Below, piece by piece: positions 4,186 to 26,494 of a DNA stretch of 64,000 nucleotides. The translations under genes and the position numbers were made by a program. The DNA comes from Promethearchaeota archaeon. GTDB taxonomy: Archaea > Asgardarchaeota > Lokiarchaeia > Sigyniarchaeales > SOKP01. The notes under the pieces are model-generated. The model searched no databases, was not told the origin of the DNA, and saw nothing but the letters and a program-made list of their open reading frames with translations. Location: contig JAHPZJ010000027.1 of assembly GCA_019058245.1 (NCBI GenBank), positions 16,330 through 80,329 on the forward strand, written 5' to 3'. The stretch's first letter is position 1. Every line of letters begins with the position of its first letter.

Positions 4186-6213
4186 ATGGGTTTTAAAAAA
4201 ATTGATATTGACGAATTAAAAACAAAAGCAAGCCCAACTTTTCTTGGTATACCTATCAGGGAAGGAGGTAAACTTATCCAAAAAAGCTATAGAGAAAAAA
4301 AAATTGAATCAAGTTACATGGGAACAAGCTCAGAAGTATTGATATTAAATGAAGAATTTTTGGAATATGATTATCAAAACGATGGAACAAGAAAAGGAGT
4401 TATAGGTAATGGAAATATTTCAATTTTCAATAATTCTATTAAAGATAGAATCTGGGATGCAAATTTACAATTTTCTGGCTCACAGTTTAATAACCAGAAA
4501 GCCGAAAATAATCTTAATTTAGGTGTCTTTGAACCTAATTCAAATAAAGTATTGAAATATGAAATTATAAATTCTGAGGATTTGCCGGATTTAATAAATG
4601 TAACTGAAAGTATTGATAACCTTAATGAAGATATTGGAATCTTTAGAAATAGTTATGAGGATTTAGAATTAAGTAATCATGAAATCTTGGAAAAAAGTCA
4701 GGATAAAAATTATTTATTGTTATGGGGAAAAGAGAATAAGGTAAAATTTACAATTAACATTGCTAACGTATCATCATATACACTTGTTAATATTAAGTTT
4801 AAAAAATTATTTGCAAATGTTTTTTACGATTTGGAATTTAAGTGCGAAAAAAGTAAGGAATTTAAAGTTATTAGAAATTCTATAGAAAGTTCATTAAATA
4901 ATATTAATCCAGGTGAAAGTATTGATATAGTTATTTATGCAAAAGTATTTCCCAAAAAGAAAGAAAATATCAAAACAGGAAATATTGAATTAACATTTAA
5001 CTTATCAAATAGAGTAATTTCCGGAGTAACAATCGATCATTTCTCAGCATATTCTCATGCGATGCATGCCATTAAAAAAACGGAAAAGATTCACGAACCT
5101 AATAACTGGAAATGTTCTCTTATATTCGAAAACTTAAGTGATTTTTCATTAAAATTGAAATCTATCCAAATATTTGATAAAAATAAAAAAAATAAAATTC
5201 TGGATTTAGATTCTAGAACACTAAGAAAACAAGTAGTCAATCCTCATGGTAAATATAAAACAGATTCTTTTTATTTTGTTGATGAAAAGGAGCCAATATT
5301 TTCAAGAAAAGTTGAATATTCTATTGGTTACAAGACTGAAAAGAATTCAATGATTACTTCCAGATATGAAGATAATTTCTTTGTCATTGCTCATTCAACA
5401 ACAAAAAAGAAATTATCAGACGAAGAGATTAAATCATTTGAAGAGGCTTCAGTACATTCCCAAATAACAATCAGTAATCAAGGGACGATACCAATCAGGG
5501 GTCTACAAATTATAGAAAAAATACCTGAAGATTTTTTACCTACAGGAAATATTTCAGATTATACATTAAGTAAATCCTCGGGTAAATTAATAATTGATGA
5601 TCTTGAATTAAAAATAAAGCCTGATGATGAAGATTCTTCTCATGAACACACCATAGAATTAAATATCAATTTAAAAACCAGTAGTTTAAATTCAGTAATT
5701 GATGTGGATAATTTCTTAGAGTTAAAGTATCCTCTTAAAGCAGTAAACCCAGATTATAAAAGAGATTATAATTTTCCACTTAGAGTTTATATCTTTTACT
5801 CAAAATATAAGGATTCTGATCGAAAAGAGTATTACATGATATCGGAAGATCTTTCTGATATGGATAAATCTAAAATAAGAATTACTCATAAAAGAAGAAA
5901 AGTTACTATTGGAAAACAGATTTATCCAGGAAGGAGCGCTAATGAATTTGCTATTTATATTATCGCAAAAAATGGTTCAAATATGAAAATGAATGATATA
6001 AATATTACAGATTCTTTTCCAGATTCATTTGAAATGATCTCCTCAAATGCAGAATATAAGCTCACTAAATCAAAGAAAAATGCTGAACAAAAAATATCCT
6101 TTACAGTTGATACTCTTTTACCTTACCAAGAAAAAGAGATAATGTATTATTTAAAAAATATAACTGAAAAAGAGATAAAATCATCAGAATTAGAGTCATT
6201 TTTTGTTGGATAA
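4186..6213 (+). CDS. Hypothetical cytoplasmic protein with several predicted beta-sandwich (Ig/DUF11-like) domains
   Basis: 675-aa ORF with GGAGG upstream; repeated ITI.N.G..PI..L.I.E.IP / I.AKNGS.....DINITDSFP..F patterns; no signal peptide or TM. Confidence 0.55.
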   Translation: MGFKKIDIDELKTKASPTFLGIPIREGGKLIQKSYREKKIESSYMGTSSEVLILNEEFLEYDYQNDGTRKGVIGNGNISIFNNSIKDRIWDANLQFSGSQFNNQKAENNLNLGVFEPNSNKVLKYEIINSEDLPDLINVTESIDNLNEDIGIFRNSYEDLELSNHEILEKSQDKNYLLLWGKENKVKFTINIANVSSYTLVNIKFKKLFANVFYDLEFKCEKSKEFKVIRNSIESSLNNINPGESIDIVIYAKVFPKKKENIKTGNIELTFNLSNRVISGVTIDHFSAYSHAMHAIKKTEKIHEPNNWKCSLIFENLSDFSLKLKSIQIFDKNKKNKILDLDSRTLRKQVVNPHGKYKTDSFYFVDEKEPIFSRKVEYSIGYKTEKNSMITSRYEDNFFVIAHSTTKKKLSDEEIKSFEEASVHSQITISNQGTIPIRGLQIIEKIPEDFLPTGNISDYTLSKSSGKLIIDDLELKIKPDDEDSSHEHTIELNINLKTSSLNSVIDVDNFLELKYPLKAVNPDYKRDYNFPLRVYIFYSKYKDSDRKEYYMISEDLSDMDKSKIRITHKRRKVTIGKQIYPGRSANEFAIYIIAKNGSNMKMNDINITDSFPDSFEMISSNAEYKLTKSKKNAEQKISFTVDTLLPYQEKEIMYYLKNITEKEIKSSELESFFVG

Positions 6214-9248: not shown

Positions 9249-9803
9249 ATGTTAAAAAGCGGTTATTACGACTTTATTTATGAAGTACAAGGTGAAACAC
9301 TTAAACTAAGGCCCGAGAAGATGTTTGATCCCAATTGCGTGTATTTAATAGTAGATAAGGAGTTAAAACTTATTTGGATCTGGGCGGGTAGTCATTCTCG
9401 ATTATTTCATCGATATATGGCAGCTAATTTTGCAGGAAAACTCAAGACAAAAAAGAAATTTTATAATTTTAAATATGAAGTCGTTAAAGAAGGTATTGAA
9501 CCTCCTGAATTTCATATAATATACAAAGAGATTAAAGAACAAAATTCTACTATAACCTATCCTGGGCAATCTAGATATATTGTTAAACAAACTCAAGCCC
9601 CAAGTAGTTATGGGGGAACTTCATCTTTAGATACAAGTTTAGAATCTAAAATAATTCTAGATGGTCGAGAATTATCAAAATCTGTCAAATCTCGTATTAA
9701 AAAAATTTTATCTGAGATAAAAGAAATTCAATCACATATAACTTATTCAATTAATCATATCCAACAACGTTTTGCCGAAATTGAAAAATTATTAGAAAAT
9801 TAG
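9249..9803 (+). CDS. Single gelsolin/villin-domain protein with C-terminal coiled coil
   Basis: FDPNCVYLIV...IWIWAGSHS...AANFA..L...VVKEGIEPPEF matches the gelsolin repeat consensus; heptad pattern at C-terminus. Confidence 0.75.
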   Translation: MLKSGYYDFIYEVQGETLKLRPEKMFDPNCVYLIVDKELKLIWIWAGSHSRLFHRYMAANFAGKLKTKKKFYNFKYEVVKEGIEPPEFHIIYKEIKEQNSTITYPGQSRYIVKQTQAPSSYGGTSSLDTSLESKIILDGRELSKSVKSRIKKILSEIKEIQSHITYSINHIQQRFAEIEKLLEN

Positions 9804-10076
9804 AGTGTTTAGAAACGATAAGAATTAAGGATATTAGATTTGATTCGAATTATTTAAAACTGCTAACGTACCTATTAATTAATAATATTGAATTTACTTC
9901 TGATTATAATAGAAGAAATATTGTCAAAAGAAGAATCAGTTATTGAATTATTGAAAGGAGGTAAAAGTCAAGAGAATTGTTAATTTTAGGAAAAATAGAG
10001 TAAAAAATTTAATCAGAATATAATTAAAAACTTAAAGTTTGTTATAATCATATGTAATTGAAAAAAGAGGGCTCAA

Positions 10077-23403: not shown

Positions 23404-23518
23404 GGATATCACCTTATCTATGAAAAGTAAATATATGTATTTAAAATTAATCAATATAGGTTTAGATTTAAAAATTGAGAAAGTTTTTTAGAATTATCAA
23501 CTTATTAATAATTAAATC

Positions 23519-23620
23519 AGCCCAGTGGTGTAGCGGTCAAGCATCGGGGGCCCTGATAAGTCTAAACGTCTAGGATCTTGGAGATACCCCTGAACCACGG
23601 TTCGAATCCGTGCTGGGCTA
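23519..23620 (+). tRNA. tRNA-Gln(CTG) with 29-nt intron at 37/38 (23557-23585)
   Basis: Acceptor AGCCCAG/CTGGGCT with A1-U72, D arm GTGTAGCGGTCAAGCAT, T arm CACGG-TTCGAAT-CCGTG, anticodon CTG 23553-55, BHB geometry at exon junctions; CCA not encoded. Confidence 0.88.
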
Positions 23621-25299: not shown

Positions 25300-25551
25300 A
25301 TGAAACTGGAACGTATTAAAATTGAAAAAAAAAGATTTCTTACCCTTACGGTTATCTTCATAATAGCAGGGTCAATTCTTCTTGTTTTATCTGGTATTTG
25401 GGTTGTATCATGAGGTGAAATCGTGTATTCTTACGAATATTTAATGATTCCCGCAATAATATGCTATGTGGGGGCAATTGCTTTTTTTATAGTATATTTA
25501 ATAGTAGTTATAATGCAATTTCGAATGAAAAGAATAAATCAAGCAAATTAA
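25300..25551 (+). CDS. Candidate small membrane selenoprotein A (83 aa, Sec38 from TGA 25411-25413)
   Basis: MKLERIKIEKKRFLTLTVIFIIAGSILLVLSGIWVVS-U-GEIVYSYEYLMIPAIICYVGAIAFFIVYLIVVIMQFRMKRINQAN; similarity to the paralogue continues on both sides of the TGA; SECIS-like element downstream. Confidence 0.8.
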
Positions 25552-25586: not shown

Positions 25587-25657
25587 AACTTGAGAAAAAT
25601 GATTTCTATAAAAAAATTTTAGTTATAGGATGATTATCCCCGCAAGGGACTCAAGTT
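25587..25657 (+). promoter_or_regulatory. Eukaryote-type SECIS-like element 1 (3'UTR)
   Basis: Helix I AACTTGAG/CTCAAGTT; core ATGA-T 25599-603 and TGAT 25631-34; helix II TTCTATAA/TTATAGGA; loop AAAAATTTTAG; extra hairpin CCC-GCAA-GGG; T-run follows. Confidence 0.82.
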
Positions 25658-25788
25658 TTTTTATTTATATTTATAATGAATCATAAAAAAATAATCAAGA
25701 ATTTCACACACTAATATTAAAAAGAAAAAACTGATTTATATAGAATAATTATATAATAAATTAATCAACATTTAAAGGGAAAGATTCA

Positions 25789-26004
25789 ATGAAATATAGC
25801 ACAAGTAGAGAAATATTTTCTGGATTTACGGTTTTCTTTGTAATTATCGGTATATGTCTTCTTTTATTATCTGGTCTTATGGCTTGAGGAACACAAGTAT
25901 TTCCATACGCGTGGGTTCCAGCAATTATATGTTTTGTTGGTGCGATAATTTCCTATGATTCATATAAAAAAGTAGTAAAACAAGATTCTCGAAATAAAAA
26001 ATAA
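25789..26004 (+). CDS. Candidate small membrane selenoprotein B (71 aa, Sec33 from TGA 25885-25887)
   Basis: MKYSTSREIFSGFTVFFVIIGICLLLLSGLMA-U-GTQVFPYAWVPAIICFVGAIISYDSYKKVVKQDSRNKK; paralogue of 25300-25551; SECIS-like element downstream. Confidence 0.8.
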
Positions 26005-26053
26005 ATTATGTTCCTAAAGAATATACTGATAAACTCTGTTTAATTGTCATCAT

Positions 26054-26125
26054 TAATCCAAAAAAATGATTCCTATAAAAAAATCTTAGTTGTAGGATGA
26101 TTATCCCCGCAAGGGATTTGGATTA
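26054..26125 (+). promoter_or_regulatory. Eukaryote-type SECIS-like element 2 (3'UTR)
   Basis: Helix I TAATCCAAA/TTTGGATTA; core ATGA-T 26066-70 and TGAT 26098-101; helix II TCCTATAA/TTGTAGGA; loop AAAAATCTTAG; same CCC-GCAA-GGG hairpin. Confidence 0.82.
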
Positions 26126-26134
26126 CATATTTTT

Positions 26135-26494
26135 TTAACCAGTTCTTTTGATTATATGATATCCAAATTTGGACTTTACTGGTTGTGAAATCTCACCTAT
26201 CTTCAAATTCGTGCATGCATTCCAGAACTCCGGAACCATATCTCCTTTAGCAAATTCACCTAAATTACCACCTCTTTTCTTACTCGAACATGTGGAATAT
26301 TGGTTTGCCAATTGCTCAAATTTTTCACCTGCCTTTAAATCCTCATAAATCTCTTGAGCTTTAGTAAATTTTTCTACTAAGATGTGACTTGCTTTAATTT
26401 TTCCTCCACGAATGGGATTCCCTCCTGTTTTTGAGCCTCCTCCTTTTGATTGTGATCCTTTTTGAAATCCCTTTCCATATTTATTTTTTCCCAT
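26135..26494 (-). CDS. Parvulin-type peptidyl-prolyl isomerase with Gly/Lys-rich N-terminal extension
   Basis: ASHILV, YSTCSSKKRGGNLG, MVPEF, PVKSKFGYHII. Confidence 0.92.
   Translation of the reverse strand: MGKNKYGKGFQKGSQSKGGGSKTGGNPIRGGKIKASHILVEKFTKAQEIYEDLKAGEKFEQLANQYSTCSSKKRGGNLGEFAKGDMVPEFWNACTNLKIGEISQPVKSKFGYHIIKRTG

Follow-up and report, generated by a model that had tools for sequence, protein, structure and literature searches.

The elements analyzed here are closest to the lokiSECIS, which is described in the text of Mariotti et al. (2016; PMC4989117) as an AUGA, a 9-bp stem counting the U.U pair, an 11-nt loop and a GA. According to the text of that paper and of Huang et al. 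(2024; PMC11227280), the loop begins with five adenines and ends in AG, the element is placed close behind the stop codon, and one element may serve two genes. The text of Huang et al. also describes an internal loop without conserved nucleotides, and their Asgard type I eSECIS-like structure is the same as the lokiSECIS. How Asgard archaea, from which SBP2 is absent, read such eukaryote-like SECIS elements without it is posed as an open question in the text of both papers. Another relevant architecture is the k-junction, which is defined in PMC10573300 and represented by the TPP riboswitch as well as by the DUF-3268 RNA (PMC10573300; PMC4005666). Tested examples fold with ions alone, L7Ae failed to fold two k-junctions tested, and no SECIS is reported as a k-junction in that paper (PMC10573300).

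Here, we have analyzed a window of 64,000 nt (that is, the whole stretch of DNA examined) from a metagenome-assembled Lokiarchaeia genome (Promethearchaeota; 3.09 Mb, 29% GC and 76%-complete) and identified two elements that very probably signal the reading of UGA as Sec in two tiny, unannotated membrane-protein genes. Locations of all features are shown in Table 1. Both SECIS-like copies were found where the preliminary description had placed them, and each has a core consisting of AUGA, 8 bp plus U.U, an 11-nt A-rich loop ending in AG, and GA. This core matches that of the published lokiSECIS; thus, the short helix II, which had been presented as a new SECIS variant, was already known. On the other hand, the genes served here, unlike those described with the lokiSECIS, fall outside all seven Asgard selenoprotein families that have been published. 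The text of these papers lacks both a third arm, which such elements share across Lokiarchaeia, and this family of membrane proteins. The elements share with the eukaryotic type I SECIS the AUGA/GA core, the apical adenines, the lower helix and the position in the 3' UTR, but they have a shorter helix II (8 bp plus U.U instead of about 11-13 bp) and an additional helix that sits on the 3' strand, which gives a three-way junction instead of a two-way internal loop. The GAA/A bulge and the short all-GC upper stem of the methanococcal aSECIS are absent from the element, and no Rfam model matched anywhere in the window at the gathering threshold. In all likelihood, the two elements are a genuine Loki-type SECIS pair.

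Table 1 Locations of the features discussed (plain positions refer to the window; G, C and L numbers denote genomes, contigs and loci)
Feature	Position	Strand
ORF-A, candidate selenoprotein of 83 aa, membrane protein with two helices	25300-25551	+
ORF-A in-frame UGA, codon 38, candidate Sec	25411-25413	+
SECIS 1, core of lokiSECIS type plus helix I and a third (side) helix	25587-25657	+
SECIS 1 helix I	25587-25594/25650-25657	+
SECIS 1 AUGA	25599-25602	+
SECIS 1 helix II	25604-25611/25623-25630	+
SECIS 1 apical loop, 11 nt	25612-25622	+
SECIS 1 GA	25632-25633	+
SECIS 1 side hairpin, 4-bp stem and 5-nt loop, abutting helix I	25637-25649	+
ORF-B, candidate selenoprotein of 71 aa, membrane protein with two helices	25789-26004	+
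ORF-B in-frame UGA, codon 33, candidate Sec	25885-25887	+
SECIS 2, same architecture as SECIS 1	26054-26125	+
SECIS 2 helix I	26054-26062/26117-26125	+
SECIS 2 AUGA	26066-26069	+
SECIS 2 helix II	26071-26078/26090-26097	+
SECIS 2 apical loop, 11 nt	26079-26089	+
SECIS 2 GA	26099-26100	+
SECIS 2 side hairpin	26104-26116	+
tRNA-Sec, interrupted in D arm and T loop, directly upstream of SecS	G000 C14:82523-82679	
Pair of two-helix ORFs (65 aa) with two cysteines in the loop, within UGA-gene array (G007)	L105:7460-7654 and 9723-9917	-
Family member with three UGA within six loop codons, SECIS downstream	L213 (G284 C121:12482-12697)	-
Two paralogous ORFs with adjacent UGA-UGA, each followed by SECIS (G000 C10)	L040:3291-3533 and 5107-5286	-
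86-aa one-helix membrane ORF, Gly-Gly-Sec-Gly-Cys motif, three-armed SECIS (G000 C13)	L042:1685-1942	-
ORF of ~296 aa, near-N-terminal UGA, type II-like SECIS with side arm (G000 C15)	L065:1588-2475	-

The three-way fold that had been proposed was predicted by RNAfold for both copies (z-scores of -2.1 and -3.1). Helix I differs in sequence between the copies and is shifted in register by one base, and pairing is kept in both, as had been claimed. The two differences in helix II also preserve pairing, but each is one-sided and not compensatory. All three helices covaried across 48 elements, in which 86% of the cells were paired compared with 35-57% in slid controls, although these counts come from an alignment fitted to the model and from related sequences whose kin are not independent. 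The earlier suggestion of a SECIS that is selected for its RNA structure and contains a three-way junction was supported.

The side arm was analyzed in the same 48 elements. Its 4-bp stem was paired in 91% of cases and showed two-sided changes at three of the four pairs (again in the model-fitted alignment of related sequences), and RNAalifold chose the same register, in which four base pairs close a loop of 5 nt. This pentaloop is of YGCRA type, mostly Y-G-C-A-A, and may contain a sheared G.A. The arm is separated from helix I by 0-1 nt. The side hairpins of the two copies are identical, as had been noted, and their exact word is present at just two places in the 3.09-Mb genome; it is not an invariant feature, however, and varies in relatives. 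Three-armed signals were found behind vhuD, vhuU, prxL and selD in five Lokiarchaeia families, including Sec-vhuD in four further families (f2, f5, f6 and f7), and the arm is also present on type II selD elements. No Sec-vhuD was found in the two genomes of other Asgard classes examined. A hairpin that follows the 3' GA and precedes helix I goes unmentioned in the text of PMC4989117 and PMC11227280, although their figures may draw one.

Two other readings concern the arm only. The preliminary description regarded it as a GNRA tetraloop hairpin that might dock L7Ae, and docking to an RNA receptor could be considered as well. A GNRA word is indeed present in 38 of the 48 arm loops, and folds of single sequences favor the tetraloop, but the tetraloop register had no two-sided change at all and covariation not above shuffles, whereas the pentaloop register does covary; furthermore, in one relative (G080), longer arm stems close a 5-nt loop. 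We therefore rejected the GNRA register, and docking of L7Ae is disfavored because the two k-junctions tested with this protein were not folded by it (PMC10573300). This reading as a whole is quite improbable. It is less improbable, though still unlikely, that the arm is purely structural, stacking on helix I and stiffening the junction with a loop that has no partner. The small gap to helix I and the variable lengths of arm stem and loop in distant families would fit such a role; however, a G, then a Y, then R-A recurs in loops from different gene families and lineages, which counts against it because these bases would be superfluous in an arm with a structural role only.

The position of the arm fits the definition of the k-junction. 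It emerges from the non-bulged strand, follows the 3' GA at a distance of three bases and adjoins helix I, and the 5' strand is the bulged one; a tandem G.A sequence is thus accompanied by a third helix that sits beside the C-helix on the non-bulged strand. Known k-junctions share these features as well as a short connector to the third helix, which adjoins the canonical helix (PMC10573300; PMC4005666). They differ in that the 5' bulge of the present elements is longer (5-7 nt, where a k-turn usually has 3 nt), the connector is 3 nt, and the architecture is known here from sequence instead of a solved structure. We consider the chance that the tandem G.A pairs and the third helix fold as a k-junction to be about even. 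Such a junction would kink with metal ions alone and would need neither SBP2 nor L7Ae, and folding in ions alone fits the absence of SBP2 from Asgard archaea. EFSec, the ribosome or another factor would then read both the apical A-loop and the third arm's conserved loop. With a conserved arm in the k-junction position, the pre-eukaryotic signal has to be pictured differently.

A covariance model including the arm was used to search the source genome. All 10 matches at E<1e-3 were located behind UGA-containing ORFs, namely two vhuD, one vhuU, one prxL, the two ORFs of the window and four further candidates, and a pattern scan of the genome added a third vhuD SECIS. It should be noted that the training set of the model included two known-gene elements, one of vhuD from the source genome and one of vhuU from a relative. 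SECIS 1 and SECIS 2 were among the best-scoring matches (92 and 87 bits), and the model had matches in all 60 genomes of the family. A dispersed repeat or a terminator behind ordinary genes, which the preliminary description had named as the outcome that would refute its reading, was rejected: model matches at E<1e-3 in the genome scan were confined to the 3' flanks of UGA-containing ORFs, and no terminator-like match was found. A few orphan or degenerate SECIS copies remain where the gene was lost, and copies without an intact UGA gene directly upstream were observed at L131, L157, L114:6613 and L107:7691.

Components of the Sec machinery identified in the source genome include genes for SecS, a PSTK-like protein and an EFSec-like GTPase (480 aa, with a score slightly below the TIGR00475 cut-off). 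The tRNA-Sec gene, located by BLAST using a relative's Rfam match as query, has a TCA anticodon, is split by two insertions and adjoins the SecS gene. selD was not found in the 76%-complete source assembly; it was detected in all five relatives. Among the long ORFs of this genome, TAA accounts for 72% and TGA for 14% of the stop codons, and genome-wide reassignment of UGA was rejected since 273 long ORFs terminate at TGA.

SELENOK and SELENOS are small eukaryotic membrane selenoproteins with one Sec, a 3' SECIS, one helix and a cytosolic C-terminal Sec. ORF-A and ORF-B are likewise small membrane proteins with one candidate Sec and a 3' SECIS, but they have two helices with the Sec in a mid-chain loop, and no homology to SELENOK or SELENOS was found in Pfam or NCBIfam. 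Both small hydrophobic ORFs had been overlooked by ordinary ORF calling and do not figure in the preliminary description, and each is followed by its SECIS at a distance of 47-61 nt. They are paralogues (39% identical) with aligned UGA codons, which are placed in the inter-helix loop; AlphaFold predicted a helix at residues 3-30, a loop with the Sec site and a helix at residues 39-70 (pLDDT 71 and pTM 0.38). Neither ORF had a Pfam or NCBIfam match at cut-off, only weak hydrophobic ones, and no homology to SelD, FrhA/VhuU, HdrA, FrhD/VhuD, Prx-like, AhpF-N or DsbA-like proteins was detected in these databases at cut-off. In a protein index searched with six family members, the sole match was the truncated form of their own product, and no homologue with Cys at the Sec site was found. 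Judging from sequence comparison, both folds are very likely Loki-type 3'-UTR SECIS elements with a three-way junction that recode UGA as Sec in two small membrane genes; each would be a functional element acting on the sole in-frame UGA of the gene just upstream, and the two units of gene and SECIS are likely to have arisen by tandem duplication. With regard to the flanks, a parvulin gene (PpiC-type, with a Gly/Lys-rich N-terminal tail; 26135-26494, minus strand) ends 10 nt from SECIS 2, and a tRNA-like gene with an intron (Gln-like reading; 23518-23620, plus strand) was missed by ARAGORN. The stretch between these two genes differs among relatives.

Further members of the membrane family were collected, partly by their proximity to a SECIS. 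Among the resulting 27 members from 16 genomes, UGA was the only invariant column, usually in the context Ala/Ser-Sec-Gly, and the frame stayed open for 30-49 codons past the UGA in every member, whereas only 10.6% of true TGA stops were followed by 30 open codons. Pooled dN/dS was 0.40 before and 0.37 after the UGA; by this measure, the half downstream of the UGA is under purifying selection. A profile built from protein sequence only had relatives in 11 of 53 same-genus genomes, and 16 of the 17 matches contained an in-frame TGA. The family is patchy, with convincing matches in one Lokiarchaeia family only among 300 Asgard genomes. Its genes occur in arrays, with as many as five UGA genes in one array and with some pairs sharing one SECIS. 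In one member, a second UGA takes the place of a Cys of its orthologue, and one homologue with Ser-Gly and no UGA shares its SECIS with an upstream UGA gene. The Cys-loop neighbors in the array of G007 were rejected as proven homologues, as both scored within shuffles.

If the UGA were a true stop, the products of the genes would be peptides with one helix, or split pairs with re-initiation from a Shine-Dalgarno (SD)-like word at the UGA, and the RNA would be a terminator or stability element. It is true that an SD-like word overlaps the UGA of ORF-A, that an in-frame GTG comes four codons further on and that T-runs follow both elements, but an in-frame start 2-6 codons past the UGA is present in only 7 of the 27 members and not in ORF-B, for which reason split genes with re-initiation were rejected. 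Moreover, the family TGA is never swapped in spite of the prevalence of TAA stops, the same RNA follows known selenoprotein genes, and the lack of terminator-like matches speaks against the terminator part, all of which makes a true stop extremely improbable. Alternatively, the SECIS family may be real and the two copies decaying relics in a variable island between the tRNA gene and the parvulin gene. The patchy presence of the genes (10 matches in 64 parvulin-anchored loci), the truncated ORF-A with a degenerate arm in G024, the existence of orphan elements and a dN/dS above 1, based on few changes, between ORF-B and its closest orthologue in G043 are all compatible with decay. However, both ORFs are intact, both elements score among the best, and G043 keeps ORF-B together with its UGA and its SECIS; decay of the two copies is thus also very improbable, if slightly less so than a true stop.

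Under the preferred reading, that is, Sec insertion at both UGA codons, the products would be two-helix membrane hairpins with both termini inside, as suggested by charge, and Sec in a short outer loop. Termini of the family members are basic and the loop is neutral, which, together with the hairpin predicted by AlphaFold, indicates that Sec most likely faces outward. Since only Sec is conserved, divergence is fast and the genes occur in arrays, we tentatively suggest a surface selenol trapping soft metals or oxidants, a role that we would not put at even odds; channel-like, defense or selenium-sink roles are also conceivable.

The arm-including model cleanly separated true elements, and it brings up selenoprotein candidates, membrane proteins among them, that were beyond the reach of homology-seeded surveys. 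A broader scenario joins these points: the Lokiarchaeia SECIS would be a self-folding k-junction whose third arm replaces SBP2, the eukaryotic SECIS would have arisen by loss of the arm and recruitment of an L7Ae-family protein, and the extended model would expose, in a single genome, no fewer than four selenoprotein families so far unlisted, including a fast-evolving, tandem-arrayed two-helix membrane family with outward-facing Sec. Taken jointly, we consider this scenario possible but somewhat less than probable. With respect to the additional candidates in the source genome, the two UGA-UGA ORFs of L040 may represent a Sec-Sec selenoprotein family. They had matches in 103 of 120 family genomes, nearly all with two TGA codons, and no Pfam match; as their open frames extend over about 150-170 aa, translation probably starts further upstream. 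The one-helix ORF of L042 is not homologous to the two-helix family; its relatives, which were found in 21 of 120 genomes, almost all contain TGA. The ORF of L065, for which 37 of 39 matches contained one TGA, is a candidate selenoprotein. In addition, a weak SECIS-like match (E 0.15) was observed behind a 281-aa ORF with one UGA (L069; G000 C13:15862-15933).
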